Below are positions 33,028 through 60,140 of a stretch of 64,000 nucleotides of DNA, piece by piece. The notes under the pieces are model-generated. The model was not told the DNA's origin. It ran no database searches and was given only the letters and a program-made list of their open reading frames with translations. Numbering within the stretch: the stretch's first letter is position 1; each line of letters opens with the position of its first letter. A program made the position numbers and the translations under genes. This stretch comes from an uncultured Candidatus Saccharibacteria bacterium (lineage in GTDB: Bacteria; Patescibacteriota; Minisyncoccia; Phycocordibacterales; CAIZLB01): contig CAZKAF010000001.1 of assembly GCA_964550955.1 (NCBI GenBank), forward strand, positions 318,197 to 382,196, read 5' to 3'.

Positions 33028-33181
33028 ACCGATATAGCAATTTTGCTATATCGGTGGCGACAGAATGTTGGCTTAACCCTTAAGCCTTACTTAATTAAGC
33101 CAGCCAGACTGGTCCGAATGACGCCTTGCTTGATGGCGCACCAGATGACACCAACAGGAATGTTTACTTAAGCCAACATTC
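33028..33181. repeat. region of nested dyad symmetries (possible structured RNA or miniature-element remnant)
   Basis: A perfect 12-bp inverted repeat ACCGATATAGCA..TGCTATATCGGT (33028-33055). A 14-bp inverted repeat GAATGTTGGCTTAA (33063-33076) / TTAAGCCAACATTC (33168-33181) with a ~91-nt spacer. A local hairpin GGAATGTT-tacttaagcc-AACATTCC. Confidence 0.4.
33158..33174 (+). repeat. copy 1 of intergenic motif GAAkGTTTACTTAAGCC
   Basis: GAATGTTTACTTAAGCC; identical 17-mer in reverse orientation at 39157-39173. Confidence 0.5.
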
Positions 33182-33191
33182 CGGAGACGCC

Positions 33192-33353
33192 GCACTATCT
33201 CCCGGTTCCGTCATCCGTAAACGGGGCGATGATGACCTTGACTATCGAATTGGACTGAATCGGCCGGCCGTCTTGGTACAGGGCCAGCATCATGAAAAAC
33301 CTGAAAGTCAGAAGCCCCAAGACCGCCAGCACGATAAGTGAAAATAGTCGGAT
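33192..33353 (-). CDS. possible 53-aa single-TM peptide (below the ORF-track cutoff)
   Basis: MIRLFSLIVLAVLGLLTFRFFMMLALYQDGRPIQ... read on the minus strand between the motif/dyad region and the parB stop. Confidence 0.25.
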
Positions 33354-33371
33354 CATGCTCTCTGCGATGTA

Positions 33372-34583
33372 TTACAGGCTAAAATTCTTGATCGAATAAA
33401 GGCTCTCGTCTTCAGCCTGGTCGGAAGGAGTCGAATCGTCGACAGGAACGGATTCGGCATTGGCGGAAGCCGCGCTCGCGGATTCAGGAACGCTCACGGC
33501 CGGCTCAATCTCGGACAATGTCATTTCAGCTGGCGTCAGGTACGCCGATTGCGCCGCCTCGACCGTCTCGGCCGGCGCCTCTGAGGCAAGCATTACCGGC
33601 GCCGCGGCAGCTGCAAAGCTTGCAGGGGCAGACGAGGCCGAAGCGCTGGCAGGCTGCGGCGAGTACGCTTCAGTCATCGACGCCGCGAAAATTTTCGCGA
33701 TATCGTTGCCGGAACCTTTTTCCCTATTCTCAAGCACGTCGAGCAAGTGCCGAAGGTCGTCATTGTTGAAGTAATCTATGACCACCTTGCCTCCCCTTTC
33801 CCGCTTCTCGATCATCACGCGAGTGCCGAGCGCCTGATTCAGCTTCTTCTCGAATTCTACGAGCTCGGGGTCGCTCGCGAACGAGTCTTTCTTCCTTGTC
33901 CGCTCGACGGCGACGCGCCTCGCTATCTGTTCCGCCTCCCGCACCGTTATTTTCTTGTAAATGATTTCCTTGAACAAGGTCTCCTGCTCTTCGGGCTTGC
34001 CGACAAGCATCAGCAGCGGCCGCGAATGGCCTTCCGTGATCTTTTTCTCGGAAAGCGCCTGAAGCATGTGCTCAGGGAGCGCAAGAAGGCGAATGCTGTT
34101 CGTCACGTATTCCCGGCTCTTCCCCATCTTCTCCGCAATCTGAACGTGCTTGAGGCCGAACTCGTCTGCCAGCCTCTGGAACGAGCGCGCCCTGTCTACC
34201 GCATTCAGGTCTTCTCGCTGGAGATTCTCTATGATGGCAAGCTCGAGCTTGACCCGCGCGTCTTCCTCGCCGGCCCGAATGATGACAGGAGCCTGGGCAA
34301 GACCGGCAAGCTTGGAGGCCCTAAGGCGCCGCTCCCCCGAAATGAGCTCATACTGGACATTCAAGCCGCCGTCCTCCTTGATGACTTCCTTTCGGGTCAC
34401 GACAAGAGGCTGCAGCAGGCCGTACATGCGGATAGAGTCCGCCAAGTCCTTGAGCGCATGCTGATCGAATTCTCTTCTCGGCTGATACGGGTTCGGCACG
34501 ATCTTTTCCAGTTCGATCCAGAAGATGGAGTTGTTAAAGTAATTCGATTTAGATGTTGGTTCCATAGACTGACATTCTAGCAT
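33372..34583 (-). CDS. parB: ParB/Spo0J-family partition protein with a long low-complexity C-terminal extension
   Basis: ParB box GLLQPLVVTRK...YELISGERRLRASKLAGL and HTH region. Ala/Ser-rich tail. Confidence 0.85.
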   Translation of the reverse strand: MLECQSMEPTSKSNYFNNSIFWIELEKIVPNPYQPRREFDQHALKDLADSIRMYGLLQPLVVTRKEVIKEDGGLNVQYELISGERRLRASKLAGLAQAPVIIRAGEEDARVKLELAIIENLQREDLNAVDRARSFQRLADEFGLKHVQIAEKMGKSREYVTNSIRLLALPEHMLQALSEKKITEGHSRPLLMLVGKPEEQETLFKEIIYKKITVREAEQIARRVAVERTRKKDSFASDPELVEFEKKLNQALGTRVMIEKRERGGKVVIDYFNNDDLRHLLDVLENREKGSGNDIAKIFAASMTEAYSPQPASASASSAPASFAAAAAPVMLASEAPAETVEAAQSAYLTPAEMTLSEIEPAVSVPESASAASANAESVPVDDSTPSDQAEDESLYSIKNFSL

Positions 34584-34690
34584 GCAGGCGCTCGTTCCGG
34601 CAGTTCACATGTACATAAAAATGTTGAAAAAATGGGGATAAGAAAAGCCGGTCGCATGGTTGATGCGACCGGCCGATTGAGAAATGCGGA

Positions 34691-35014
34691 CTAGCCCGCC
34701 GCTGGCTTAATCTGGTAAGCCGCCGGCGTCTCGGGGTTTTCGATCTGGTCCTGTCGAGCCTTGCTGTTCTTGTCGAGACTCTCCGCGACAAGGCGAAAGC
34801 AGAGGCATATCATGACCAGCGCAAATGCCGCCCAGATGGCATGAATCGCGTACATGTCGGCAATCTCAAGCATCGTCTTGCCCTCCCAAGCCGGCTTCTT
34901 TGCCTGCTTGGCCAGCTTGCCTGTGGCAGACCCGGAACCGGGCTCGCCGTCGTCCAAAATGATTCTTGTGGTTTTGAGGCCATCCGGTTTCCGGTGAACT
35001 GTGTCATCTGACAT
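34691..35014 (-). CDS. small membrane protein with a C-terminal TM
   Basis: ATG at 35014 preceded by AGGAGG 8 nt upstream. TM helix IHAIWAAFALVMICLCF. Confidence 0.5.
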   Translation of the reverse strand: MSDDTVHRKPDGLKTTRIILDDGEPGSGSATGKLAKQAKKPAWEGKTMLEIADMYAIHAIWAAFALVMICLCFRLVAESLDKNSKARQDQIENPETPAAYQIKPAAG

Positions 35015-35185
35015 ATAAGTAATCCTCCTGCGAATTTGAATTTGTTGGCTGCGTGAATGAACATGGTGCCCATCCATCTGGTTTTAATAATACCATACTT
35101 TACTATATTTGTACATATCCGCTTGGCCGCGGCCGCCTCGCCCATGCCCGATTGCATGCAACGCAAAGAAACAAAATTCATGCTT

Positions 35186-35214
35186 TTGCAAGTATGGCAG
35201 TATTGCCGTATAAT
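35186..35214 (+). promoter_or_regulatory. near-consensus sigma70 promoter for tRNA-Leu(CAA), and probably miaA
   Basis: TTGCAA (35186-35191), a 17-nt spacer and TATAAT (35209-35214), about 15 nt upstream of the tRNA 5' end. Confidence 0.55.
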
Positions 35215-35228
35215 GCCCGTATTCAAAT

Positions 35229-35309
35229 GCCGGAGTGGCGAAATGGTATACGCACTCGACTCAAAATCGGGCGTCGCAAGACATGTGGGTTCAAGTCCCA
35301 CCTCCGGCA
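35229..35309 (+). tRNA. tRNA-Leu(CAA) with a long variable arm
   Basis: Acceptor GCCGGAG/CTCCGGC, anticodon stem CTCGA/TCGGG with loop CTCAAAA, a long variable arm and T-arm GTGGG-TTCAAGT-CCCAC. No encoded CCA. Confidence 0.8.
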
Positions 35310-35360
35310 CAATTCAAGGATCCGACTCGATGCCCTATCCGGGCATGGCAGATTAATTTC

Positions 35361-36338: not shown

Positions 36339-36549
36339 TTGGCTTTTTTCATTTTCGAAGTAATATCTTGCCTGGATCTTTTCAGGCTAGCGCGCCCGGG
36401 TTTAGTCTTAAGCCCACTTCCGGGACCCTGATGAGAAAGTTTGGAAAAAGGCCGCATAGCGGAACGCCGCCTTGATCCATGAGCCGCCCCACGAAACGTG
36501 AGGGCGGTTTTTCATATCCCCTCTTTTTTTCGGCCGAACTTTGGCAGTT

Positions 36550-37038
36550 TCAAATATTTCTTATTTCGACATATCCAGCAGGCTTTTCTCTATACAGCTT
36601 CAGCAGATACACATGCGAATCAAGCGTATCGACGGGCTCTTGTGCCAAACTGAACCATCCGGCTTCAATTATTTCTTTTGTATCAAGCGTAAGGATGGAT
36701 TCGGATGATACAGGTTCGGCAACCAAAGTTATTTCGATTCGAAAAGCAAATCCGCTTCGAATCCGAAGAACCCTTTCAATTTCTATGTCCAAGCCAAGCT
36801 CCTCTTTCGCTTCCCGTTTCGCGGCATCATATATATTTTCATTTTTATTTATATATCCGCCAACAAGCCGCCACGGCTTTTCTCCGCTGAATACATGCTT
36901 GGCAAGAAGCAGGCGACCATCTTTATCCGGAATAATTATGGAAATTCCAACATTGAACTTCGAGTGCGCGAGCCACATGAGGCGCCACTGCGTTTTTTTA
37001 CCGAGAATCTTCCATAATTTAGAGAGCGAAGAAATCAT
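36550..37038 (-). CDS. NUDIX hydrolase (paralog 1)
   Basis: Nudix box GGYINKNENIYDAAKREAKEELGL. Confidence 0.75.
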   Translation of the reverse strand: MISSLSKLWKILGKKTQWRLMWLAHSKFNVGISIIIPDKDGRLLLAKHVFSGEKPWRLVGGYINKNENIYDAAKREAKEELGLDIEIERVLRIRSGFAFRIEITLVAEPVSSESILTLDTKEIIEAGWFSLAQEPVDTLDSHVYLLKLYREKPAGYVEIRNI

Positions 37039-37054
37039 ATTTCAGAGGTTTAGG

Positions 37055-37624
37055 TTATCGTATAATTTTACTCTTAAGTCCAACCCGTATAGCATTTCCT
37101 GAAAAATGCTCCATGAATCGGTTGACGCCTATCTCTTTCTCCGGCCACTGACGGTCATCGCGCGAAGACGTATGATTCAATATTACCGACAAGACCTCTC
37201 CTGCATGCTCGACGTAGCCGATAACCAGGACCAAGTGCCCATTTTTCTTTCCGCCGGCAAGGCCGGTGCCGATTGAAACTATCAGGATATTTCCTTGATC
37301 GATAGATTCGCTGATCTGTCGAATCTCGCTTACCTGCATTCTTTGCGAATCGATGTTTCGATTATTTAATTCATCAACGATTCCTTGGTGCACGCATCCG
37401 ACACCGTCTTTATATACCCCCTTCCCTTCCATCTCCCGTATCAAGTCGGCGAACCTTTGACCTTTGTGATCTTCATGCATGTCCAAAATCATCTTCATGC
37501 ACGCGATGCCGCACGAGCGATTTTCCCAATATTTGGCATCTTCGGCATCCTTGAAACCCCGCTCTTTCCATTCATGGCGAGAAAGCTGAGAAAAAAATGG
37601 AATCTTGCGCAGAACCTTTTGCAT
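37055..37624 (-). CDS. putative papain-like / C39-like cysteine peptidase domain protein
   Basis: Catalytic-Cys context W.NRSCGIACMKMIL and a later HL.V..GY motif. Weak assignment. Confidence 0.4.
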   Translation of the reverse strand: MQKVLRKIPFFSQLSRHEWKERGFKDAEDAKYWENRSCGIACMKMILDMHEDHKGQRFADLIREMEGKGVYKDGVGCVHQGIVDELNNRNIDSQRMQVSEIRQISESIDQGNILIVSIGTGLAGGKKNGHLVLVIGYVEHAGEVLSVILNHTSSRDDRQWPEKEIGVNRFMEHFSGNAIRVGLKSKIIR

Positions 37625-37625
37625 C

Positions 37626-38066
37626 CTATTTAAAAGTGCTCAAGTAGATATTCTCCCGATTCCCGCACCATTGGATTATTCTTTCCAAGAATTGGGCCGG
37701 AAGGAACGCGAACTCGCCGAGCTTGTCGAGCCGCTCAATCTCAATCCACTCAAACTCGATATGCTCTTCCTTCGATACGACGGCTTGGCTGTCGAGAGTT
37801 GCCGTGAATATCAGATTGTACTCGTGATGCGGAGGGACTTTTCCCCACTGATTTTCAAACACGCCGACGAAGGCAAGATTGCTGATGGCGACTCCGGTTT
37901 CCTCGACGAACTCCCGCTTGAGGGCGCTTTCAGCGCTTTCGCCGAACTCGACATGCCCGCCGGGCAGATAATAATGAGGCGTATCCTTGACGGCCTTGCA
38001 CAAGAGAATCTTTTCATCCTTTATAATGAGCGCCCGGGAAATTATTTCTATCATGATAGAGCTCAT
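37626..38066 (-). CDS. NUDIX hydrolase (paralog 2)
   Basis: Nudix box GGHVEFGESAESALKREFVEETGV. Confidence 0.75.
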   Translation of the reverse strand: MSSIMIEIISRALIIKDEKILLCKAVKDTPHYYLPGGHVEFGESAESALKREFVEETGVAISNLAFVGVFENQWGKVPPHHEYNLIFTATLDSQAVVSKEEHIEFEWIEIERLDKLGEFAFLPAQFLERIIQWCGNRENIYLSTFK

Positions 38067-38089
38067 TATAATGCATGCTGCGATTATGG

Positions 38090-39064
38090 CTAGATGCCGT
38101 CCTCCGCCTTTTGGACGGCCTTCCTCCTGCCTCTTTTCAGATGCGACAGCACGATTGACACCAAGGCCCTTTTCTCATACATCCGAAGCCCCCTGTGCAT
38201 CCGAAGAGCTTCCGCCACGGCGGAATTGACCCAGCCCTCGACGAGATTGGTCGTGTTCGGGCAGCCTTCGTGATTCAAGAACGTGAAAATATTAGGAAGG
38301 GCGCGGCGCACGATGAGCCGGGCGCTCCTGAGCTTCGGATACCTGAAGTTTCCTGATTCATTCTTTTCGATGAGCTGCCTTGCGTATTTTTTCTCCCAAG
38401 CCTTATACAGGAACATCCACATTTCCTTGCCCGCGTTCGTCTTCGCATATTTCAATTTATATAAAATGCCTATGAGCTGGATGCTCGCCTCTTCTTTCGG
38501 CCTTCGTCCGGTGTACTGAAGGGCGAAGGCGACCACGTGGAATTGGCAACGCTGTATCGGCACGTTCGGCCACAAGCCCCTCGTCGCGGCGAACAGCCCC
38601 TTCTGGCCGTCCATGATGACGACTTCCGGCTCGGCGAACGAGGAAAGAAAATCCGACCAGACCAGAAGCGACTCATACGGCGCGAATCGCCAGTACAGGT
38701 TGTCATCCTCGTCAATCGCAACGAGCGCGCAGAGCGAATGGCCGTGAACGTAGGTGCCGTCCAGAATGAGCACGCGCGCCTTGGTCTGAGGCGGAATGAC
38801 CGGCTCGGGCATCTCCCTCATCAAGGGATGCAATCGCTTCCAGAGGGCTTGCCGGGTCTTATGATCCTTCAGCGCCATTTTGCTCAGGCTGTCCTTGCCT
38901 CCGAGCCAGCGGTCGAGCTTATAAAGGAGATGCTTCTTCTCGACGGCATCTTTCTTGCGCGTCGAGCTGACGCGGCAGGCCAGGCAATAAAAACGGGGCA
39001 ACCCTTTGGCGGTACGCCCCCAGTGCTCCAGCACCCCGTTGCATATCGGGCATTTTTTCTTCAT
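38090..39064 (-). CDS. DDE transposase, IS1595-family-like with an N-terminal zinc ribbon
   Basis: CPICNG...CLACR zinc ribbon, then acidic residues in ILDGTYV and VVIMDGQKG and a C-terminal N..E.....R motif (NTTNLVEGWVNSAVAEALRMHRG). No clear terminal inverted repeats found. Confidence 0.55.
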   Translation of the reverse strand: MKKKCPICNGVLEHWGRTAKGLPRFYCLACRVSSTRKKDAVEKKHLLYKLDRWLGGKDSLSKMALKDHKTRQALWKRLHPLMREMPEPVIPPQTKARVLILDGTYVHGHSLCALVAIDEDDNLYWRFAPYESLLVWSDFLSSFAEPEVVIMDGQKGLFAATRGLWPNVPIQRCQFHVVAFALQYTGRRPKEEASIQLIGILYKLKYAKTNAGKEMWMFLYKAWEKKYARQLIEKNESGNFRYPKLRSARLIVRRALPNIFTFLNHEGCPNTTNLVEGWVNSAVAEALRMHRGLRMYEKRALVSIVLSHLKRGRRKAVQKAEDGI

Positions 39065-39156
39065 ATCCTTCTGAAGCTAGCAAATATCCCTCATTTGTCA
39101 AAAAAGTGTCGGATGCTGTCAAAAAACATGCAGGAGACATCCTGAAAGTTCATATC

Positions 39157-39173
39157 GGCTTAAGTAAACATTC
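39157..39173 (-). repeat. copy 2 of motif (reverse orientation)
   Basis: GGCTTAAGTAAACATTC is the reverse complement of GAATGTTTACTTAAGCC, 93 nt upstream of the transposase start. Confidence 0.5.
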
Positions 39174-39389
39174 ATGTTGGTCTTTTTTCTGCTATTTCGC
39201 GAAAAGAAAATCGACATGAGTATTTAACGCCTTAAAATATGAGCCGCATGGCGCATTTTAAATATATAAAGCAAGACCGATCGAACCAAAGCATAAATAG
39301 GCTATGGATAACTAGAATCAGTTCAAGACAGGCAAAAGAACTTTATTACTAAACGTAATTGAGTGCTTTTGTCTATTTTGACCTACACA

Positions 39390-39405
39390 GAAGTTTACTT
39401 AAGCC
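39390..39405 (+). repeat. copy 3 of motif
   Basis: GAAGTTTACTTAAGCC, followed at 39414-39440 by a perfect 11-bp hairpin AGACTGTTTTC-atcac-GAAAACAGTCT. Confidence 0.5.
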
Positions 39406-39551
39406 CGAGAGCAGAGACTGTTTTCATCACGAAAACAGTCTGAAACCCAGAGACAAAGTCGGCGCGATTTTGAGGCAATTTTAGGACGGTTTTTGCTTGG
39501 AGTGTTATCCGTCTATTTCCAGCTTCCCAGCTGTTTGAAACTACTTGTAAA

Positions 39552-40175
39552 CTATTTTCCGTGCTTGATTCCATTCCACTTTTCGCGCGGACACTTGTTC
39601 GGCCAATTTCTCCACTCACCGGCATTTCGGTATTTTGGAAACTCCTCCTTTTCAACCCAGTGAAGCTTGTCGTCATCTTTGATATGCATGGTAAATTCTT
39701 TTCCGTTCAGATGATCAATTTCATGCTGAAATATGCGAGCTGTATAACCGGAATATTCTTCCTCGACGACTGCGCCGTCTTCCGCATGCGCGCGCATTTT
39801 TATCTTGTCAGGACGAGAAACGATTCCGCATACTCTGCTTGTTGAAAAGCAGCCTTCGTACCATTCGCCTTCCTCGTCCGATGACCAGATAATTTCAGGA
39901 TTTATATACAATCGCAAATCGCCGACTGTTCCTTTGCCATCCGCGATGACATCGACGAGAATGATTCTCTTTGAAATGCCTATCTGAGGAGCAGCCAAGC
40001 CGACAAGAAGAGGCTTGCCCGCATCTTGCTGCTCGCCCAAAGCAACATCGAACATTTTGCGTATTGAATCCTGAGTTTCCGGCGACGACATGTCTTCGAC
40101 CGGCACCGCATCCGCTACATGGATAAGCACCGGATCGCTCGGCGGAACAAATTTGTCTAGTTTGAGGGCGGCCAT
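39552..40175 (-). CDS. def: peptide deformylase
   Basis: GLAAPQIGISKRI, EGCFS and QHEIDHLNG metal-binding motifs. C-terminal ~35-aa Trp-rich extension. Confidence 0.9.
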   Translation of the reverse strand: MAALKLDKFVPPSDPVLIHVADAVPVEDMSSPETQDSIRKMFDVALGEQQDAGKPLLVGLAAPQIGISKRIILVDVIADGKGTVGDLRLYINPEIIWSSDEEGEWYEGCFSTSRVCGIVSRPDKIKMRAHAEDGAVVEEEYSGYTARIFQHEIDHLNGKEFTMHIKDDDKLHWVEKEEFPKYRNAGEWRNWPNKCPREKWNGIKHGK

Positions 40176-40246
40176 GATTATACAGATTATAGCATTTAAA
40201 TATTGATTTTTAGCAAAAGCATTCTGCGCTATATTTATAATTTTAA

Positions 40247-41428
40247 CTAAATCCCCTTATACACCCTCATGATTCGCAGATGAAGCGCGGTCAATATGAC
40301 GCCTGAAATGATGCCTATGTAAAGGAAGCCCATTTCGTAAGAGAATGCCTGTATCAGCCAGCCGAGCAAGAAGCCGGCGCCGGCAGTCAAGACGCTTTCG
40401 ATCTGGGAACCCAAGGACAGCAGTGTTGCCTTGAATTTGCTTTTGCCCATGATTTTCATTTGATACCCTTCGTCTATTTTGCTCAGACCCCAGTGAATTC
40501 CGCTATTCAATATGAACAATGTCAGAATCACATACGTATTGCCGGCAAGGCCGATGCCGATGATAAGCAGGATGTGCAGCAGGTACTGAAACCGATAGAA
40601 TGAACTGAGCGTGAAATATTTTTCAAATTTGTAGCTGTAAAAAAGAATGAATGACGCCAATGCCCTCCCTATTCCGATAAAGACGCCGAACCACATCACG
40701 GCAACTCCCAATTCGACTTGAAAAGGCGCCCTGAACGCAGACACGCCGAGCAGCGTCGCGCTCATGAGTCCCGAAAAGATCGCGACGGTAAAATAATTTA
40801 TATTCCACGCTTCTTTTACGATCGTCTTAAAATTGGACGCCTGGACTTCCTCTATCTGCACTTGCGTAACTGGGGGCTTTTCAAGAGACAAAACCGCAAT
40901 CAAGCCGACGATGTCGACAATGGCCATGAGCAAAAATGGCACCTTGTAAGAGATTCCGACCAAGAAAGGCACCAGTACCGTAAGGGCTATCGGCACAGCG
41001 AACCCGACTGAGCTTATCTTGCCCATCACGGACGAATATTCGCCGTCACGATTCAGTCCTTTCAAGGTCTCGTGCATGAAAGCGCTTCCGGTTCCGCTGT
41101 TAAACGCCGATCCTATGCTCAATGCCACGGCAGCCATGATGAGCAGGAAAATATTATTCGAAAGCAAGAAGCAGACCGAAGATGCGAGCAGCATGATCCG
41201 GGACACGACCAGCGCCTGCTTGTGGCCTATCTTGTCCGAAACGTAGCCGCTCGGAATCTCGAACAAGAAACTGGCGAAGCTGCCGAATAAAGTTATGGTA
41301 CCGATGACCTGCGGAGTCACTCCGTCGATCGTCAGGTAGTAGGCGCCCAGTATCGCGACAAAGATTCGCTTGTTCGCAACCGACGCGATCGTGAATTTCC
41401 AGATATTGTTTTTTAGGGTGTTGCTCAT
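40247..41428 (-). CDS. MFS transporter
   Basis: 393 aa with about 12 predicted TM helices and a G.....D..GHK-type motif after TM2 (SGYVSDKIGHKQ). Confidence 0.8.
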   Translation of the reverse strand: MSNTLKNNIWKFTIASVANKRIFVAILGAYYLTIDGVTPQVIGTITLFGSFASFLFEIPSGYVSDKIGHKQALVVSRIMLLASSVCFLLSNNIFLLIMAAVALSIGSAFNSGTGSAFMHETLKGLNRDGEYSSVMGKISSVGFAVPIALTVLVPFLVGISYKVPFLLMAIVDIVGLIAVLSLEKPPVTQVQIEEVQASNFKTIVKEAWNINYFTVAIFSGLMSATLLGVSAFRAPFQVELGVAVMWFGVFIGIGRALASFILFYSYKFEKYFTLSSFYRFQYLLHILLIIGIGLAGNTYVILTLFILNSGIHWGLSKIDEGYQMKIMGKSKFKATLLSLGSQIESVLTAGAGFLLGWLIQAFSYEMGFLYIGIISGVILTALHLRIMRVYKGI

Positions 41429-41458
41429 ATTATGGGTTTGCTTGATAATGCCGGCTGT

Positions 41459-42052
41459 CTAAACTTTCTTATAAATAGAAACATGGAATATGCCTGAATA
41501 TTTGCGATATGATTGGACCTTCGCAAGGCTATTCATATTTTGAAATATTTCGTCATACGAACCCGCCAGATGGCAGCCATAGCTCCTTTTGTAAAGACTG
41601 TCCAGCACTTTTTGAATTCGGGCGATTATCTTATATTTTGAAAATCCATGCTGAAAAGAAATTATCGAGCCGTCATGGCGGAGCAGCGCGACTGACTTTT
41701 CCACAATTTCCGATGGATTATCGAAAACGCACAGGCATAAAGGCAAGACAACGGAGTCGTACTCTTCCGCATTTTTCGCGCTCAAAAAGCTTGTCACCTC
41801 GTCTTCGACAAAAATAAATTTTTCAAGCAGGCCCGGCTTGACTATTTGCTTGGAAAAATCCAATCTGGCACCGTTTTTGTCAACGACAGTAACCGAATCT
41901 ATGCTTTCATATTTATAGTAATCAAAGTTGACGCCCAAGCCGGAACAAAACTCCAAGACTGAACCGTGCGCATGCGGAATGCAGCTCTTTCTTAGATTTT
42001 CCAAGTGCGCGGCTCTTTTCTGGTTCTTATACTTTTTTAATAACTTGTTCAT
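41459..42052 (-). CDS. class I SAM-dependent methyltransferase
   Basis: Motif I VLEFCSGLGVN and a downstream acidic motif II. Confidence 0.7.
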   Translation of the reverse strand: MNKLLKKYKNQKRAAHLENLRKSCIPHAHGSVLEFCSGLGVNFDYYKYESIDSVTVVDKNGARLDFSKQIVKPGLLEKFIFVEDEVTSFLSAKNAEEYDSVVLPLCLCVFDNPSEIVEKSVALLRHDGSIISFQHGFSKYKIIARIQKVLDSLYKRSYGCHLAGSYDEIFQNMNSLAKVQSYRKYSGIFHVSIYKKV

Positions 42053-42062
42053 CCTTTTATAA

Positions 42063-42830
42063 TTAATGTCCAGAACGGAGACCGACGCCTCTTCTTAAAT
42101 ACTCCTCCATAAGGGCAATGTCTTCAAAATCTTTTGGCCTGCCGTAATCTTTCTTGAACTTGATAAGCTGATGCAGGCTTAAAAACGGCACGCCGTTGAC
42201 GATCTCGCCTTCTTTCATCAAATCCTTCGCCGTCATCGCCTCGTCTTCGAATCCCAATTCAAGCAGCAATTCGACCCCTTCCTTTTTAAGCCAGCTCTTT
42301 CCGACCTTGCCCGTCCGCGTCCATGGCCGCAATTCCCATCCATTTTCCAGACATTCGTCAAAAAGCTCTTGGGTCACGACGATATCGAGATCGTAAGCCG
42401 GGCGTATGCCTTTTGCCGACATGATTCCGCTTCCGGCAACTACATACTCGCCGATTGGAAAGTTAAGCTTTTCCAATTCCTTAAAGATATCGATCGGGGT
42501 CATTTCTTCCTTAACCCACCTCACGTCAGTCGCATATCCCCCTTTCTCCCCCGGCTTCGCAACCTGAGTCAGATCCTTCTTCTTGCCTCCGAACAGCAGG
42601 AACTCGCCCTCCTCGCCGAGTTTCTCAAGATTTCTCTCGTCCGCATGAAAGCCCGTCCGTTCCAGCAGCTCCCTGGCTGCCGCCTTCGCGGGAAGCTCAT
42701 TTTCTTCTATTTTTCCGGCCGGCAAATCATACTTGCCCGCGCGCAGATAATGATGCATGAGCACCTTGCCATCCTCATCGCTGATTTTTATTTTGACGAA
42801 TTTCCGCATCGCTTTCATTATTTTAATCAA
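42063..42830 (-). CDS. NUDIX domain (paralog 3) fused to a nucleotidyltransferase-like C-terminal domain
   Basis: Nudix box AGKIEENELPAKAAARELLERTGF in the N-terminus. The C-terminal half carries G.G...S..GIR...DLDIVV, resembling a minimal nucleotidyltransferase fold. Confidence 0.5.
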   Translation of the reverse strand: MIKIMKAMRKFVKIKISDEDGKVLMHHYLRAGKYDLPAGKIEENELPAKAAARELLERTGFHADERNLEKLGEEGEFLLFGGKKKDLTQVAKPGEKGGYATDVRWVKEEMTPIDIFKELEKLNFPIGEYVVAGSGIMSAKGIRPAYDLDIVVTQELFDECLENGWELRPWTRTGKVGKSWLKKEGVELLLELGFEDEAMTAKDLMKEGEIVNGVPFLSLHQLIKFKKDYGRPKDFEDIALMEEYLRRGVGLRSGH

Positions 42831-43225
42831 ACGTTTTCATCAAATACTCCGTCAGACTCAGCAGCCACCTCATCCATAAGTTTCATAATTTGGTCACCCT
42901 CTTCTTCAAGTCTTTCAATCAATGCGTATAATTGATCTATTTTATTACCTTCTTGCTCCCATGCAGTCCATTCTTCATCAGAACTCGGCATTTGAGTATA
43001 TTTTACTTTTAGGGCTTCGGCCAACATTTTAGCCTTTTCATAAAGTCCATTAACTATAACCTGTATTTCATTTAAATTCTTTAGACCTTCTTCTTGATCT
43101 GAAATCAGCTTCTCAGTCTTTTCAATCAGAGAACTTAAATGAGCTATTTTCTCTTCTGCCGCGACTATTTGTTTTTCTAAATTGGAATTTTGGTTTTCGT
43201 GATTCATTTGAGCACATTTTAGCAT
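42827..43225 (-). CDS. coiled-coil hypothetical protein
   Basis: 132 aa, Glu/Lys-rich heptad pattern throughout. Confidence 0.45.
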   Translation of the reverse strand: MLKCAQMNHENQNSNLEKQIVAAEEKIAHLSSLIEKTEKLISDQEEGLKNLNEIQVIVNGLYEKAKMLAEALKVKYTQMPSSDEEWTAWEQEGNKIDQLYALIERLEEEGDQIMKLMDEVAAESDGVFDENV

Positions 43226-43281
43226 ACCCTGGACCAGGTGTATCTAAGCTATTCCTGGTCGGACTTGTTCATATTAATACT

Positions 43282-44334
43282 TCAGATCACTCCCGTTTTG
43301 CATACTATTATCTTCGTCTTGAGATATGCGTTGGCGGAAGTCATTGCCTCAATCTCAACCGTCTTTACTATTTGAAATGAGGAATCGCGCGCCACGCTCT
43401 CGAAAACCCCATACTCGCTCGTGTATACTGCAAGCCTGCCGCCAACGCTGAGTTTCCTTTCAGCATACTGCATGAAATTCCGATAAAGTTCTTCTAAATT
43501 TTCTCCTTTGGAAATAGACATGCCGAATGGCAGATCCGATGCGATGACGTCAACCGTGCCAAAATCTGGGTTGTCGCGAATATCAGCCTCTTTGACCTGG
43601 GCTTTTCGTATGAGACCTGCTTCCTTGATGTTCTGAATCGACAAAGAAAGATGCTTTTTGCTATTGTCGAAGCCGATGAGCCGTTCAAGATTCGGATACG
43701 CAAGGCCGGCTTCGATCAATAAAGTTGCACTACCTGAGAATGCATTAAGATATGACTTGGCTTTATCCAATTCGCAAAAAGAATTGAGCGCATGCGCGAC
43801 CGTCGGATCCATGGCGCCGCTCATGTTTTGAACCTTGTAACTTCGCATCGAGAGCGGCCGAGAGGTGATTTGCATGCCAACTTCCCAAACATCTTCAGGC
43901 TTAATGATGTGAATCTTCAGGTCTGCCTCGTCGCTTTCTTTCAGCTTGAAAGCTTCCGCTACGTATGTCGCGAGACTCCGCACCTCAGGCGAATGCGCTC
44001 CGGCGCAAGATATTTTGAAAGTTTTGAACTCTTCGTCGCCTTTATTACCCCCTACGTTTTCGGCCAAAACTACCTCTATTAGATTTCCAAGGATAGATTT
44101 ATTTTTTGAAACGTACGTCGGATTATATCTCGAGCTTTGAACGACAAGATATGCACGTGCAATACTTCTGAGTTTTTTAATGTCAGCCAGAAGATTCCGA
44201 TCAAAAGCTGCGTAAAGAGAATCCGCCTCATGTCTCAAGATGCGCATGCCCTCGATTTTTTTAATCTCATTTAAGACGGCCTCTTGAAGTCCGGTCGCGT
44301 AGGATAGTTTGAGTTCTGGCTGGGTTAGGGTCAT
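43282..44334 (-). CDS. THUMP-domain RNA methyltransferase (Trm14/RlmL-like)
   Basis: N-terminal THUMP-like region, SAM motif I (GSATLLIEAG) and catalytic DLPFG (DPPF-type). Confidence 0.7.
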   Translation of the reverse strand: MTLTQPELKLSYATGLQEAVLNEIKKIEGMRILRHEADSLYAAFDRNLLADIKKLRSIARAYLVVQSSRYNPTYVSKNKSILGNLIEVVLAENVGGNKGDEEFKTFKISCAGAHSPEVRSLATYVAEAFKLKESDEADLKIHIIKPEDVWEVGMQITSRPLSMRSYKVQNMSGAMDPTVAHALNSFCELDKAKSYLNAFSGSATLLIEAGLAYPNLERLIGFDNSKKHLSLSIQNIKEAGLIRKAQVKEADIRDNPDFGTVDVIASDLPFGMSISKGENLEELYRNFMQYAERKLSVGGRLAVYTSEYGVFESVARDSSFQIVKTVEIEAMTSANAYLKTKIIVCKTGVI

Positions 44335-44510
44335 TGGTTTATCTTGCGTTTTTTCAGGTCCTAGCTTTTCATTCTATAAACCTCAACAAAGTGGTTTTTC
44401 CTGCCAGCAGCTTCAAATTTTTGAGCGGCAAATTGTCTGGCTAATTCGATTTGGTTCATACTCTGGACATATTGCAATTCTATCGCATATTAATTGGATT
44501 CTATCATACT

Positions 44511-45008
44511 TTAGACGATACGCTTAAGAGCCTTTTTTATCATCGCATCGCTCCGCTCACCCCAATCAAAATACTGCTTATAATCCAATGGGTCGATGAG
44601 CTTGATTTCAGTAATTTCCCCATCTTCAGCGGCGTCTTTTGTAAAATCCCCGTAAGGTTCAACTATGGCAGCATAGCGAAGTATATACACAATTTCATCC
44701 GTTTCTTCGCTCGCGTATGTCTCATAACCTAGAGGAAACAGCTCAAGAACTTTCATATTTGATTCCTCTTTTATTTCCCTAGCAATACAGCCTTCGAATG
44801 TTTCCCCTTCTTCACGACCACCGCCGGGCATTTCCCAAACATCCCTGCCATGAGCATAACCTAATACTAATTTATCATTATAAAAACACAGCGCTCCCGC
44901 TGCACCTACAGGTAAAGACCGAATGGAGTCGAAAGTATCTAATTCTTCGTATCGTACGCTCCATTTTATACCTGTACGTTTTGATGTGTAAGTAGTGTTT
45001 GTAATCAT
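44511..45008 (-). CDS. NUDIX hydrolase (paralog 4)
   Basis: Nudix box GGGREEGETFEGCIAREIKEESNM. Confidence 0.75.
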   Translation of the reverse strand: MITNTTYTSKRTGIKWSVRYEELDTFDSIRSLPVGAAGALCFYNDKLVLGYAHGRDVWEMPGGGREEGETFEGCIAREIKEESNMKVLELFPLGYETYASEETDEIVYILRYAAIVEPYGDFTKDAAEDGEITEIKLIDPLDYKQYFDWGERSDAMIKKALKRIV

Positions 45009-45088
45009 AATCGTAAACTTGCCCCGCGCTTAATTGGACACGCCGTCTCGAGCCAGAATCATGGTCGACCAAACACCGTTTAGTCCGT

Positions 45089-45922
45089 TTAGGACATTCT
45101 AGCATGCATAAGTTTGATCGTGCTCTTGAAATGGTCGACAAAAAATACCGGTATTTTTAATTCTGAAAACCTCCCAACGCAATATGAATTAATGGCGTCC
45201 GTTGCAATTTGAGTCTGATCAAGGTTGTTCAATTCAATATGACCTACGATGATTCCTTTAGGCGTATTTTGATTAATGACGTACATGAACTGGCTCAATA
45301 TGTACCCGAGATCATCGAGAGTTTCGCCAAGCGCACCGCTGTGATATTCAATAAATACATATTTGTCCTGCAGATGAGTCTTAAGGCCGTTTTGGAGAAG
45401 GATGAATCCTGGAAGATATCCTCCAATGACGTTAACCTCAAAGACGTTGGGCACTTCAGTAGTTCCGGCTGCGTCCAAAACCTTAAGCCTTTCGCAGGTC
45501 GGTTTATTTTCCTTCAAGAAGTCTACAATAAATTGACGGCCTGCTCTTTCCGGCAAGAAATCTTTTACGTACGCTAATCCTTGGCCGTAATAGCATGTTA
45601 CCCCTTTTGTTACTGCAATTGCTGCAAAATGAGTGAAGTCACTAAGGCCATAAAAAATCTTATTCGAACCGACAACCTTGTCCCAATCTATTTTATTCAA
45701 TACTCGAAGACAATCTGAACCCCCTCTAATAAACCAGACGAGGTCAGCGTCGCTATTCAATGCATCATTAAACAAGGTCACCTTTCCATCAAGATTGTCA
45801 GCCCCTGTCGCAAAGTCAAGATAATCAATCTTCTCCTCCACAAGAAAATCAATCGAATCTTTATAAGAGCGATGTTTCTTAAAGTCTGACTCCTGACACA
45901 AATCCACTAGCGCGATTTTCAT
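45089..45922 (-). CDS. LD-carboxypeptidase-like (peptidase S66) protein; AT-rich
   Basis: IRGGSDCLRVL and the GLSDFTHF Ser motif, with a later EYHSG, in the order of S66 catalytic residues. Confidence 0.5.
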   Translation of the reverse strand: MKIALVDLCQESDFKKHRSYKDSIDFLVEEKIDYLDFATGADNLDGKVTLFNDALNSDADLVWFIRGGSDCLRVLNKIDWDKVVGSNKIFYGLSDFTHFAAIAVTKGVTCYYGQGLAYVKDFLPERAGRQFIVDFLKENKPTCERLKVLDAAGTTEVPNVFEVNVIGGYLPGFILLQNGLKTHLQDKYVFIEYHSGALGETLDDLGYILSQFMYVINQNTPKGIIVGHIELNNLDQTQIATDAINSYCVGRFSELKIPVFFVDHFKSTIKLMHARMS

Positions 45923-46000
45923 AAACTAATTGTATCATAAGAAATTCCTAGCCAGATTTACCTCATGCCACGTAGAATATTCGAGCCGGCTTTTCTTGGT

Positions 46001-46017
46001 GGGCCCACAAGGATTCG
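46001..46017. repeat. 17-nt direct repeat of the tRNA-Trp 3' end
   Basis: GGGCCCACAAGGATTCG is identical to 46216-46232 inside tRNA-Trp, 215 bp away. Confidence 0.7.
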
Positions 46018-46214
46018 GTCGTTACACGACCAGTATGCCTTTTAAACAGTCTGTTCGCCTCGTTTATGTACCCAAATAATATCACAACATCACCCCTCGG
46101 CTCGATACTGTGCTCAAAAGCCCTTCTCATCCTTGTCGAAAGCACCCCGTGCTTCCTTGGACCCTTCGATGGAGGTAAAATACCGCCCAATAAATTAGGC
46201 GGTATTTTACTCTG

Positions 46215-46286
46215 CGGGCCCACAAGGATTCGAACCTTGAACCTCGCGTTTGGAGTGCGATGTTTTACCATTGAAACTATGGACCC
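46215..46286 (-). tRNA. tRNA-Trp(CCA)
   Basis: Reverse complement GGGTCCA..TCGCA-CTCCAAA-CGCGA..CAAGG-TTCGAAT-CCTTG-TGGGCCC-G. Discriminator G73; no encoded CCA. Confidence 0.8.
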
Positions 46287-46594
46287 GTTTTAATTTGATT
46301 GTGCTGATACAGGCGTCGGCATTCATCCGAAAGGCTTGCCGGACAGAGAACGCAATTCCGTAACTTGCTGATATTCTCAACGCGCCGCCAACCCAGCAAC
46401 AACGCCAAAATCTATATCAGATACGCAACATACTAATCTAAATCGCCTGAAAACTCAACAAATGACAGGGTGCCAGATTGGAGAGATGACACCCAAATCT
46501 CCGGCGACAACTTGAGAAACCAAAGCAAAAAGCACCTCGTACGTGTGCTTTTTGCAGGAGTAAGGAGTTCTGCGAACAACCAGACAAATACGTC

Positions 46595-50067: not shown

Positions 50068-50079
50068 ATTTTTGGAGTA

Positions 50080-52009: not shown

Positions 52010-52050
52010 GCTTAAGCTTCTAAATCTTGAAGTTTGTTTTTTGTAATGAA

Positions 52051-52091: not shown

Positions 52092-52108
52092 TCATGCCTT
52101 GCAGCCGC

Positions 52109-54673: not shown

Positions 54674-54737
54674 GCATCGGGCAGCCCTTAGCTTTGCCCG
54701 ATGGAAAGCATCCGTCCGGCAAGAAAATACAAACCAA

Positions 54738-55064
54738 ATGAACACTCCCAGATCATACAGAAACCAAAGAGCCGAAGACGTTCTCAAGGAGCTCGCGATG
54801 AACTTCATCAAGCTCGAGTCGAACGGCACCTCTCTCGTGACGGTCACGAACATCTCAGTGCAGAACAGGGGCAAGAATGCCACCATCCTGTTCACCGTGC
54901 TTCCGGAAGACAAGGAAGAGGTAGTCCTGGACTTCCTCAAGCGAAAGAGGCCCGAGTTCAGGGGGTTCATCAAGGAAAACTCCAGAGTCGGCATTATCCC
55001 CTTTATCGACTTCGAAATCGACCTCGGCGAGAAAAATCGACAAAATGTGGACAGGTTGCTATAG
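54738..55064 (+). CDS. rbfA: ribosome-binding factor A
   Basis: 108-aa KH-like protein immediately downstream of infB (conserved order); R...V...I..L..I.... pattern. Confidence 0.7.
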   Translation: MNTPRSYRNQRAEDVLKELAMNFIKLESNGTSLVTVTNISVQNRGKNATILFTVLPEDKEEVVLDFLKRKRPEFRGFIKENSRVGIIPFIDFEIDLGEKNRQNVDRLL

Positions 55065-55180
55065 TATCTGAGTATTTTAGCTGTTCAAGCAGTCGAAATA
55101 CGCTCATTCCGGCGGCGGAGCCAGGATGTCAGGGACTTCCCTGCTCGAAAGCTCAGCATGCGGGATGAATGCAAATAAAT

Positions 55181-55257
55181 GGCGTAGTGGCGAAGTTGGT
55201 CAACGCGGCAGTCTGCAAAACTGCTATGCGCCGGTTCGATCCCGGCCTACGCCTCCA
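55181..55257 (+). tRNA. tRNA-Cys(GCA), CCA encoded
   Basis: Acceptor GGCGTAG/CTACGCC, anticodon stem GCAGT/ACTGC with loop CTGCAAA, discriminator U73 and 3' CCA. Confidence 0.8.
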
Positions 55258-55275
55258 GGACAGGAAAGCAAGATT

Positions 55276-55359
55276 GCCCGGGTGGCGAAATGGTAAACGC
55301 GTGACACTTAAAATGTCATGACTTAAACAGTCTTGTGGGTTCGAGTCCCACCCCGGGCA
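55276..55359 (+). tRNA. tRNA-Leu(TAA) with a long variable arm
   Basis: Acceptor GCCCGGG/CCCGGGC, anticodon stem TGACA/TGTCA with loop CTTAAAA, and T-arm GTGGG-TTCGAGT-CCCAC. Confidence 0.8.
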
Positions 55360-55527
55360 CAGAATGCGGCGCAAGCACGGTGTCATGGCGGTCCTGAGAA
55401 ACCCCCGGACGGCACTTTTTCTTTTCTTTCTTTTATGCTATAAAGTACTTACTTTTATAGTGCAGGGAAACGAAGACGGAAGTCGCGGGACGGAGGAATT
55501 CGAGAAACGCATGATAAAATCACATAT

Positions 55528-55603
55528 CCGCCCGTAGCTCAGTTGGTAGAGCAACTCCCTCTTAAGGAGATGGTCGTAGGTTCGAATCCTACCGGGCGGA
55601 CCA
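55528..55603 (+). tRNA. tRNA-Lys(CTT), CCA encoded
   Basis: Acceptor CCGCCCG/CGGGCGG (C1-G72), D-stem GCTC/GAGC, anticodon loop CTCTTAA, and T-arm GTAGG-TTCGAAT-CCTAC. A27/A43 mismatch. Confidence 0.7.
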
Positions 55604-55777
55604 TAAACAAAAGAATACTTTTCAAGTGTTGCTTTTGTTTATTTGAAGCCCGAGTGCATAATTTATTATGCACGTGCAGGATTCGAAAGGGTTCTCCTGT
55701 ATTTTTGAGAAACGAGCAAAGTTCATGGCTGAGCGAGTTTTGAAAAAATAGGAAACCCGTACTGGTCCTGTAAGGAC

Positions 55778-55796
55778 CGAATCCTACCGGGCGGAC
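55778..55796. repeat. 19-nt direct repeat of the tRNA-Lys 3' end
   Basis: CGAATCCTACCGGGCGGAC is identical to 55583-55601 inside tRNA-Lys, ~195 bp downstream. Confidence 0.7.
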
Positions 55797-55869
55797 ACGT
55801 CGCAAGTCATGAAACCGCCGTTCGCGAGAATGCGGCAAAATGATTGTACGTAAAAAGTTGGGCGAGTGG

Positions 55870-55955
55870 TGAAACGGTAGACACGTCAGTCTTAGGAACT
55901 GATTCCCGCAAGGGAGTGGAGGTTCAAGTCCTCTCTCGCCCACCAGCAAAAAGCA
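55870..55955 (+). tRNA. tRNA-Leu(TAG) with a long variable arm, CCA encoded
   Basis: Acceptor GGGCGAG/CTCGCCC, anticodon stem TCAGT/ACTGA with loop CTTAGGA, and T-arm GGAGG-TTCAAGT-CCTCT. Confidence 0.8.
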
Positions 55956-56158
55956 GCCAAGCCGAAGCCTGACTGCTTTTTACGTTCTGCCCCGCTTGAC
56001 TGCTGAAGCTCCGGAGGTATATTTAGATTAGATTTGACCGTTTTCTCCATTGCTTCAAACAGGACGAATGGCCACGACAAGCAAATGGCGCCTTTTTCCT
56101 GCTTGATGCAATGGAGCCCTTCCAGTGCACATTAACCTAACATGCGGAGTACAGCTTT

Positions 56159-56395
56159 ATGGCAATGCATATTATCAGACCAGGAAAAGTTAATTTAGAG
56201 ACAGCTTATGTTGCAAACTGCAATCATTGCAAATGTCGCTTCACCTTCACGCTCAGTGACGTGAAAGAAATCCCCGATTTCCGCGATGGCAACTATCATG
56301 AGGCGAGATGCCCGGAGACCTCCTGCAAGCAGACCGTCAGGATTTTCAAGCTGACAATTCACAGAAGGCCCGAGCCGAAAAAGAACAAGCGATGA
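56159..56395 (+). CDS. small Cys-rich protein (possible zinc ribbon)
   Basis: 78 aa with CNHCKC ... CPETSCKQ cysteine pairs and a basic C-terminus. Confidence 0.4.
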   Translation: MAMHIIRPGKVNLETAYVANCNHCKCRFTFTLSDVKEIPDFRDGNYHEARCPETSCKQTVRIFKLTIHRRPEPKKNKR

Positions 56396-56431
56396 GTCCT
56401 GAACGGAAGCTCGACCGCAAGACCAGACACG

Positions 56432-56447
56432 GAAGTTTACTTAAGCC
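56432..56447 (+). repeat. copy 4 of motif
   Basis: GAAGTTTACTTAAGCC, followed by the short hairpin AAGCC-agacac-GGCTT. Confidence 0.5.
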
Positions 56448-60136: not shown

Positions 60137-60140
60137 GCTT

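Follow-up and report, generated by a model that had tools for sequence, protein, structure and literature searches.

An intergenic motif in a Saccharibacteria genome is the terminal inverted repeat of an IS1249-group element with both ends upstream of the transposase gene

The repeat copies in the window

The window analysed here is a 64-kb stretch of a 696-kb genome of an uncultured Candidatus Saccharibacteria bacterium, and the copy counts given below cover this stretch. It contains a gene for a 324-aa transposase and, upstream of that gene, one intact small element, non-coding and 249 bp long, that is bounded by terminal inverted repeats (TIRs) of the resident transposase with 26-nt arms. 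Three further TIR copies stand alone elsewhere. The features are as follows, with PWM scores in bits.

21666..21691, + strand: solo TIR, fifth copy, IRR-type, diverged, GGCTTAAATAAGCATTCACGCTGGTC; 26.3 bits
33149..33174, - strand: solo TIR, copy 1, IRR-type; 36.2 bits
38090..39064, - strand: transposase, 324 aa, outside the TIR pair; Pfam Transposase_mut, NCBIfam IS1249
39157..39405, - strand: MITE-like element of 249 bp with IRL and IRR as its ends and no transposase inside; inverted pair I16
39157..39182, + strand: IRR (copy 2); 40.5 bits
39209..39222, - strand: internal half-site CTCATGTCGA; alignment A3, columns 202-215 against 231-240
39327..39373, - strand: conserved leader hairpin GACAAAAG...CTTTTGCCTGTC, just inside the IRL; RNAalifold
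39380..39405, - strand: IRL (copy 3); 37.2 bits
56422..56447, - strand: solo TIR, copy 4, IRL-type; 28.8 bits

Copies 1 to 4 had been described in an earlier note as a 16-17 nt motif, and all four were recovered at their positions and on their strands; the diverged fifth copy at 21666-21691 had been missed, and all copies are intergenic. The recurrence is real, as GAAKGTTTACTTAAGCC has four matches in the window when up to two mismatches are allowed (0.01 expected) and the 13-mer GTTTACTTAAGCC has four exact matches against 0.09 expected. The repeat unit is however longer than had been thought, at 26-30 nt, and reads from one end GGCTTAAGTAAAC(A)TTCnTGTnGGTC, the motif as first described being the outer two-thirds of a 26-30-bp TIR with GGCTTAAG as its outer tip. 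A 26-nt PWM has exactly five matches in the window (26-40 bits, at 21666, 33149, 39157, 39380 and 56422), compared with a mean of about 8 bits and a maximum of 15.3 in shuffled sequence, and a motif scan of genome contigs returned chance singletons only. The palindrome ACTTAAGT that the core was said to contain is absent, the actual letters being ACTTAAGC, which are palindromic in CTTAAG only. The exact inverted pair 6 kb apart does exist: it is formed by the copies at 33149-33174 (-) and 39157 (+), with copy 1 and the arm at 39152-39181 being 90% complementary over 30 nt (I2).

Copy 1 lies 20 nt 3' of a 53-aa ORF that comes after parB, about 200 bp from the parB stop codon as had been noted, and is embedded in a hairpin (GGAATGTT-TACTTAAGCC-AACATTCC); no partner TIR or transposase fragment was found near it, and the related locus L115 lacks it at the syntenic site. 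Copy 4 follows a 78-aa zinc-ribbon ORF, 26 nt past its stop codon, and is trailed by a partial tandem repeat, CCAGACACGGCTTGAG, that reaches 56461; a single inserted G is its sole difference from the IRL of L129. About 60 nt separate the fifth copy from the start codon of uvrB downstream of it, and in L115, the locus of which extends as far as the beginning of uvrB, there is nothing TIR-like. All three solo copies are exactly TIR-sized with no IS sequence adjoining them, which simple decay of an insertion sequence does not predict.

The transposase and the 249-bp element

The transposase had been labelled IS1595-like, a label that proved wrong. It belongs to the IS1249 group of the Mutator/IS256 superfamily of DDE enzymes, carries an N-terminal zinc ribbon and has D102, D152 and E276 invariant. 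Its best NCBIfam match is IS1249 (E 1.4e-56, residues 3-302), and as the score of 192 bits falls short of the curated cut-off of 300 bits for that model the protein is a distant member, being only 23-32% identical to named IS1249-family transposases. It also matches the NCBIfam model of the IS256 Zn-variant (116 bits), Pfam Transposase_mut and PDB 6xg8 (PDB name: Mutator family transposase; E 1.7e-8). On the IS1595 side only a generic N-terminal zinc-ribbon model hit it, at 23 bits (cut-off 28), and none of the IS1595 transposase models did.

Copies 2 and 3 are inverted relative to each other over 26 nt and enclose 197 nt (I16); on the way from IRL to IRR come the leader hairpin, an AT-rich interior and then the internal half-site. 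The IRL reads GGCTTAAGTAAACTTCTGTGTAGGTC from outer to inner on the - strand; by its position and its orientation it is the homologue of the IRLs in 11 aligned relatives and of the left end in canonical ISs. The IRR, read in the same direction on the + strand as GGCTTAAGTAAACATTCATGTTGGTC, points its outer end at the transposase gene, the ATG of which is 93 nt away, in agreement with the distance reported before. The leader hairpin is conserved, with columns 31-87 of alignment A3 predicted by RNAalifold to be paired with compensatory changes (for example columns 34/84 AU:7 GC:3; 39/79 AU:6 GC:4 CG:1; 47/71 GC:5 AU:4), it is followed by a -35-like TTGAAC, and canonical ISs have an equivalent hairpin. 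The internal half-site is similar in sequence to the TIR's inner half and varies from locus to locus in step with the IRR there, being CATG in the window and in L127, GCGTTG in L135 and L137 and CGTG in the others, and it is presumably functional. No target-site duplication was found around the 249-bp element (flanks TCATATC and CGAGAGC), and an Rfam search of the element gave no family matches.

Canonical insertion sequences and the clade of the window

The same sequence stands at both ends of ISs of ~1.05-1.12 kb in about 50 related metagenomic loci, where the transposases are 30-47% identical to that of the window. The left end of these canonical ISs lies ~85-110 nt before the ATG, the right end begins at the stop codon, and the arms are perfect over 24-33 bp. 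Those that were checked are flanked by 8-bp target duplications (TCAATTTT in L145, GGGGTTTG in L155 and TTCTTCTA in L165). The TIR of the window, GGCTTAAGTAAAC..TGTTGGTC, corresponds to GGGTTAAGG(G/A)AACTTTCGTGTTGG in the canonical copies of the candidate phyla radiation (CPR), and IS1249 itself on pTP10 ends in GGGTTAAGGGTCAAAAAGTGTGTCC, of which the first 10 bases are those of CPR canonical elements such as L144 and L145 (GGGTTAAGGG).

The ~50 loci outside the clade of the window's transposase have the ORF between the two TIRs, whereas the members of that clade, a single one in the tree and comprising at least 16 loci, have both TIRs on the 5' side of the gene. The order in the window and at least 15 other members is IRL, 180-198 nt, IRR, 3-93 nt and ATG; the IRR is 3-93 nt upstream of the ATG in every member, and the layout of the small element is collinear in 12 loci, again with 180-198 nt between the TIRs. 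No TIR was found at the 3' side of the gene in the clade, all PWM scores from -400 to +300 around the stop codon being below 0, and no target duplications were found around the unit from IRL to stop codon in 12 clade loci. Old insertions, here as in the window, could have lost theirs. The homology between L135 and L137 runs from the IRL to the stop codon and no further.

The motif is under constraint: its nucleotides are conserved in front of transposases the protein identity of which is only 52-66%. Furthermore it tracks the transposase, as the PWM found no TIR, and scored 6 bits at best, in about 50 kb from three syntenic relatives without that gene. The TIR pair does not enclose the transposase gene, so that the 249-bp element in this form cannot take the gene along with it; the gene is nevertheless found in genomic contexts that differ between genomes.

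Interpretation, rival readings and known systems

The motif is the TIR of an IS of the IS1249 group, IS256 family, in a genome of the Patescibacteria (CPR). The earlier note had offered four readings, and the one that proved correct is a recombination site associated with the transposase; the operator and parS-like readings were not supported, and a REP-like small repeat fits as a description only. We consider this explanation as a whole very probable, in which copies 2 and 3 bound a non-autonomous element and copies 1, 4 and 5 are isolated, lineage-specific TIR copies that past activity would have left. The 324-aa protein is the cognate transposase, and the motif copies would be its binding and cleavage sites: it would bind TIRs, bring two together and cleave each at the tip, and it would probably mobilise the 249-bp element in trans, like a MITE, with its own gene staying outside the repeats. 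Members of the IS256 family have TIRs of ~31 bp, a subterminal TGTAAA motif and 8-bp duplications, and transpose by a copy-out/paste-in route via a circular intermediate (PMC7780238); the GTAAAC of the TIR here would be comparable to the conserved TGTAAA. Counting against this explanation, neither the 249-bp element nor the 12 IRL-to-stop units of the clade have a target duplication; the place of the gene outside the repeats and the bare, TIR-sized solo copies also speak against it.

A centromere-like role, in which the copies would be parS-like half-sites for the ParB encoded 200 bp from copy 1, draws on that proximity and on a TGTTTAC stretch loosely like the TGTTTCAC of parS. The motif however is not palindromic, unlike the 16-mer TGTTNCACGTGAAACA, the whole window has no canonical parS within 3 mismatches, ParB orthologues of 80-87% identity occur in loci without the motif, which is absent from three relatives syntenic over miaA-parB-topA, and the motif goes with a transposase in unrelated contexts; this reading is close to refuted. 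It is also highly improbable that the copies are transcription-factor operators of a small regulon of uvrB, the transposase and the parB operon. Such a regulon would suit the strong sequence conservation and the positions of the fifth copy upstream of uvrB and of copy 2 upstream of the transposase, but three of the five sites lie past the 3' ends of genes, in mixed orientation, there is no consistent position or orientation relative to promoters, relatives lack the sites at syntenic positions, and mobile ISs with 8-bp duplications carry the same sequence at either end. Any binder of these sites would be the transposase, and autoregulation at copy 2 is compatible with the TIR explanation.

We give equally little credence to an inverton, in which the repeats at 39157 and 39405 would flank an invertible promoter that switches expression of the transposase. 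Inverted repeats do surround a ~200-bp AT-rich segment directly upstream of the gene, short-read contigs break inside it, and in L123 a serine recombinase adjoins; yet the copies in 12 independent assemblies all share one order, the hairpin by the IRL and the half-site by the IRR, with no flipped variant, a recombinase is a neighbour in only 4 of ~16 loci and is a large serine recombinase, and the same repeats serve as the ends of mobile ISs. The REP-like reading stands in so far as these are short dispersed intergenic repeats, although their origin is an IS end. It would seem unlikely, if less so, that the solo copies are retained by the host in a REP-like manner, as parts of terminator hairpins or as transposase decoys, rather than being relics. 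Their sharp boundaries at TIR size, the better conservation of the outer 13-17 nt than of the inner parts and the placing of copies 1 and 4 in or beside hairpins at gene 3' ends would agree with retention, against which the 64 kb contain no more than five copies, the hairpin partner differs at each site so that there is no common structure, and relatives lack the copies and hence give no sign of long-term retention.

Among known elements, IS1249 (Corynebacterium striatum pTP10 / Tn5432) shares the Mutator-type DDE transposase, a TIR that begins GGGTTAAGGG and has an inner block GTGTG, a single ORF, and 8-bp duplications as seen in the sister clades of the window's element. It differs in its length of 1.385 kb, compared with 1.05-1.12 kb for the CPR elements, and in that the right TIR of the window clade is upstream of the ORF instead of after it. 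ISCth4, a structurally characterised copy-out/paste-in element of the IS256 family, has a transposase of the same superfamily (to which the 6xg8 match points), ~30-bp TIRs with a subterminal TGTAAA-like motif (here AGTAAA/GTAAAC), a -35-like TTTAC(T/A) 6-12 bp from the right tip, and 8-bp duplications (PMC7780238). The two proteins are however only distantly related, and the ISCth4 transposase lies between its TIRs.

The 249-bp element is like a MITE in being non-coding, in having the TIRs of the resident transposase as its ends, and in that L137 holds a second copy (109 nt assembled). It differs in its lack of a target duplication, in having one intact copy in the window and in being permanently linked 5' of the transposase gene throughout the clade, unlike ordinary MITEs.

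ISEcp1 belongs to the IS1380 family and is of the one-ended transposition type. Use of the IRL together with a surrogate right end would explain how a gene beyond the right TIR could move, but no duplications were found at any unit from an IRL to downstream, no weak sequence resembling a right end was detected, and the element of the window is of the IS256 family. RAYTs, which act on hairpins, are Y1 (HUH) enzymes of the IS200/IS605 type. Reminiscent of the REPIN-RAYT arrangement are a transposase gene that adjoins a doublet of its own inverted recognition repeats without being enclosed by it, and short repeat copies scattered through intergenic DNA, although the enzyme here is a Mutator-type DDE transposase with classical TIRs, not Y1/HUH, and the copy number is low.

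It is possible, though doubtful, that the clade is a DDE counterpart of the REPIN-RAYT arrangement, with the gene as a stationary helper that copies the ~250-bp element and TIR-sized fragments in small CPR genomes. The gene would then be long-lived and essentially single-copy, just outside the right end of the element, possibly domesticated or tolerated by the host rather than part of a conventional IS, and would itself move rarely and by other means. If true, this would be a natural case of an autonomous element turning into a helper-plus-MITE pair in very small genomes.

The motif itself is ordinary and is explained as an IS end, and should be masked or annotated as such and not followed up as an operator or centromere. 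The element is ordinary in kind and unusual in layout: the analysis documents an IS1249-group lineage in Patescibacteria, for which a literature search found no description of IS1249-group elements, and one branch of that lineage, a single clade, puts both transposon ends upstream of the transposase gene.

Finally, the small element may be multicopy. The second copy in L137 lies 2.3 kb off with no transposase adjoining, and is identical at 109/109 positions up to the end of the contig. Logan contigs break at 39185 and 39359, within the element, and in other assemblies contigs start or end inside it or at its edge at about nine loci. As a breakpoint of short-read assemblies, the element bears on the binning and finishing of these genomes.

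The repeat and the transposase it belongs to

The four intergenic motif copies described in the earlier note all lie where it had placed them, and alignment of their flanks shows that the similarity spans ~26 nt and ends there; read from one end, the repeat unit is GGCTTAAGTAAAC(A)TTCnTGTnGGTC. The 13-mer GTTTACTTAAGCC has four exact occurrences in the window against 0.09 expected, and the 17-mer with up to two mismatches has four matches against 0.01 expected. A position-weight matrix (PWM) of the 26-nt unit, derived from 23 instances, finds exactly five matches in the window at 26-40 bits (shuffled-sequence control: mean ~8 bits, maximum 15.3), the fifth being an additional copy that is more diverged than the other four.

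Copies of the motif in the window
21666-21691, copy 5
33149-33174, copy 1
39157-39182, copy 2, right terminal inverted repeat (IRR)
39380-39405, copy 3, left terminal inverted repeat (IRL)
56422-56447, copy 4

Look-alikes at 36393, 46803 and 52016 scored below 8 bits with the PWM and were treated as chance. When genome contigs were scanned with the 16-mer GGCTTAAGTAAACN{0,1}TTC at least 114 stretches matched, and the 80 loci listed each hold a single match, in unrelated taxa, which is chance-level noise. The palindrome ACTTAAGT that had been reported for the core is absent, the actual sequence being ACTTAAGC. A shared RNA or DNA structure around the copies was also rejected, as the flanks past ~26 nt are unrelated and the hairpins are unlike between sites, and a search of Rfam matched no family.

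The 324-aa protein encoded at 38090-39064, previously labelled IS1595-like, is instead a DDE transposase of the Mutator/IS256 superfamily: it matches Transposase_mut in Pfam, IS1249 in NCBIfam (E 1.4e-56, under the curated cut-off), the IS256 Zn-binding variant model (116 bits) and PDB 6xg8, whose PDB name is Mutator family transposase (E 1.7e-8). Its homologues form a small family whose few named members are all Patescibacteria (CPR), and viral contigs yielded a single weak relative, so the family is apparently not phage-borne. The motif is kept at the nucleotide level upstream of homologues with only 60-62% protein identity, and in one such metagenomic locus, L123, the inverted partner is also there.

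A metagenome scan with the transposase alignment gave 80 loci, and in ~50 loci, with transposases 30-47% identical to that of the window, an element of ~1.05-1.12 kb has the motif sequence at each terminus, ~85-110 nt ahead of the ATG on the left and starting at the stop codon on the right. The arms of these canonical elements, in which the transposase lies between the terminal inverted repeats (TIRs), show identity across 24-33 bp, and 8-bp direct repeats flank the elements (TCAATTTT in L145, GGGGTTTG in L155 and TTCTTCTA in L165). Many of them make up a contig of their own, of 1.1-1.4 kb, a hint that they are multicopy repeats. On pTP10 the end sequence of IS1249 is GGGTTAAGGGTCAAAAAGTGTGTCC, its first ten bases being those of the canonical CPR copies, for example L144 and L145. 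Because the motif forms both ends of the canonical elements and IS1249 ends alike, it is the TIR of this transposase, and it is in this form that the recombination site tied to the transposase, one of the candidates of the earlier note, is upheld.

As a sequence feature the motif is the end of an IS1249-group, IS256-family element. TIRs of the IS256 family are ~31 bp with a subterminal TGTAAA motif and have a -35-like TTTACA 6-11 bp from the right tip, and the family makes 8-bp duplications and transposes by a copy-out/paste-in route via a circle (PMC7780238, ISCth4 structure). At bp 7-13 the window TIR has AGTAAA/GTAAAC, and at bp 7-12 it has TTTACT, which would correspond to the TGTAAA and TTTACA of the family. 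The motif is ordinary; it is the layout that is of interest, if modestly.

A layout with both TIRs upstream of the gene

In the window the transposase gene has both IRL and IRR on its upstream side; the two enclose 197 nt, with the outer end of IRR towards the ATG and 93 nt from it. Loci with 52-66% identical transposases have the order IRL, 180-198 nt, IRR, 3-93 nt, ATG, the only exceptions being L131 and L133, and the IRL-IRR-ATG order is likewise found on the 960-kb contig JBBCGK010000001.1 (GCA_037200965.1). A right TIR hidden after the gene was considered and rejected, as local alignments 3' of the transposase stayed at chance level and every PWM score between -400 and +300 relative to the stop codon was below zero in the 16 loci scanned. 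There is no space for a downstream TIR in L125 and L134, where a convergent gene runs into the 3' end of the transposase gene. In the two exceptions, which fall within the clade, the sole TIR lies past the gene, its outer end towards the gene 3' end, and this looks like the same TIR-gene adjacency after a flip of the gene.

The upstream-TIR loci form one clade nested among canonical clades in a neighbour-joining tree rooted on IS1249, so the layout is derived and arose once. Compared with the IS256 family, the window's clade lacks the defining placement of the transposase between the TIRs, and target duplication, another defining feature, was not found in it. A MITE with a resident helper is the closest functional analogy for this clade and REPIN-RAYT a looser one.

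Two further kinds of gene were seen beside these transposases. A large serine recombinase of ~440 aa (Resolvase, Recombinase and Zn ribbon) lies near the transposase in four loci, in variable orientation, and its recurrence suggests a shared mobile island; a diversity-generating retroelement (reverse transcriptase PF00078 and bAvd PF22296) abuts the transposase unit in three related loci.

Recombinase and retroelement genes near related transposases
L123:4273-5595, large serine recombinase
L131:2645-3928, large serine recombinase
L132:2-991, large serine recombinase
L158:4134-4925, large serine recombinase
L129:10-303, retroelement, IRL side
L135:1-999, retroelement, IRL side
L134:4922-6308, retroelement, transposase 3' side

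The small element and the solo copies

The TIR pair bounds a small element of 249 bp (39157-39405) that holds no transposase gene. Directly inside IRL is a hairpin with compensatory pair changes that is common to the canonical elements, and this leader hairpin is followed by a -35-like TTGAA/TTGAC, then by a variable middle, which by eye often looks like a terminator hairpin with a T-run, and then by an ATATAT box; a half-site like the inner TIR co-varies with IRR. In the window the gap between IRR and the ATG holds a small terminator-like hairpin and TTGACA boxes.

L135 and L137 share 82% identity over a stretch that begins at the IRL tip and ends exactly at the stop codon, past which they have nothing in common, so the unit of small element and gene occurs in different contexts. 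In L137 the small element occurs again 2.3 kb downstream, inverted and identical at 109/109 positions up to the contig end, and none of the long reading frames adjacent to this second copy is transposase-like. At about nine loci (L118, L119, L120, L121, L122, L125, L126, L210 and L211) contigs of other assemblies have a terminus within the small element or at its edge. Logan contigs of the source organism (SRR16797981, SRR16797977) are 100% identical to the window and in both runs stop at 39185 and 39359, inside the small element, and L210, a Logan contig from another genome, ends at the equivalent point, 3 nt inside IRR. The Logan assembly presumably uses k = 31, and if so the branch point is the outer end of IRR plus one base, or else interior. 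Together the second L137 copy and the contig breaks favour more than one copy or state for the small element, and with it MITE-like mobilisation in trans as the probable mechanism. An ISEcp1-like unit running from IRL to downstream sequence was rejected, as target duplications were sought and no 8-bp duplication was found around the small element or any such unit.

Around copies 1, 4 and 5 a partner TIR, adjacent IS sequence and transposase or pseudogene fragments were sought and none found. A few diagnostic bases mark copies 1 and 5 as right-end-like (AAACATT) and copy 4 as left-end-like, its sole difference from the IRL of L129 being one inserted G. Copy 1, in a hairpin GGAATGTT-loop-AACATTCC, lies 20 nt past the 53-aa ORF that comes after parB; a 78-aa ORF ends 26 nt before copy 4, which is followed by a partial tandem copy, and copy 5 is ~60 nt ahead of uvrB. 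These TIR-sized solo ends are possibly deletion-trimmed relics of past insertions, or host-retained sites.

The intergenic region of copy 1 also has a perfect 28-nt palindrome ACCGATATAGCAATTTTGCTATATCGGT at 33029-33056, which may be a bidirectional terminator or operator. Beside it GAATGTTGGCTTAA at 33063-33076 is an exact inverted copy, 91 nt apart, of the copy-1 outer-end/flank junction TTAAGCCAACATTC (33167-33180), the two being the ends of a ~140-nt hairpin-like structure (DNA fold z-score -3.4). By eye, TTGAAG-N16-TATGAT before uvrB (21605-21660) ends ~8 nt before the ATG, so uvrB would be nearly leaderless, and a promoter-like TTGACA/TATAAT pair at 56597-56630 precedes the gene starting at 56770; from these boxes sigma-70-type promoters look canonical in this organism.

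Genomic context and other readings of the motif

The content of the window is bacterial, the genes near the copies being topA, an unknown gene, parB, tRNA-Leu, miaA, a C39-like peptidase, a NUDIX gene, the transposase and def. The best named relatives of ParB are in Candidatus Paceibacterota (Patescibacteria). L115, whose ParB is 80% identical, keeps the order miaA, parB, small ORF, topA and has no motif copy, with a plain terminator at the position of copy 1. The motif is also absent from the further ParB relatives L212 and L214 (top PWM score 6 bits), which are closer but differ too much in parB-topA gene content for an empty-site comparison at copy 1. The earlier note had considered a parS-like site and a transcription-factor operator; since these relatives lack the motif and the window contains no canonical parS, a parS role and a conserved operator are both excluded. 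A 6-kb transposon between copies 1 and 2 is likewise ruled out, as the parB, tRNA-Leu and miaA that it would enclose are syntenic with topA in the motif-less L115.

Between miaA and rpmG/tRNA-Trp there is a stretch of ~10 kb (36400-46400) with a GC of 0.41-0.49 against 0.52-0.56 in its flanks, containing the transposase, several NUDIX genes, the C39-like peptidase, def, an MFS transporter, methyltransferases and an S66 peptidase; it looks like a variable island because L115 has just two small genes between miaA and rpmG.

Elsewhere in the window, the 3' end of tRNA-Lys (55578-55601) has a 92% identical counterpart at 55773-55796, and 46003-46042 shows 80% complementarity to 55753-55792. Neither ARAGORN nor Rfam called a tRNA at 55773-55796 or at the latter two places, which all look like duplicated tRNA 3' halves and could be integration-site remnants or tRNA pseudogenes. 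Finally, 59086-60252 holds a 63-nt coding segment in four copies and a 218-nt pair with 72% identity, which are probably tandem paralogous small genes.
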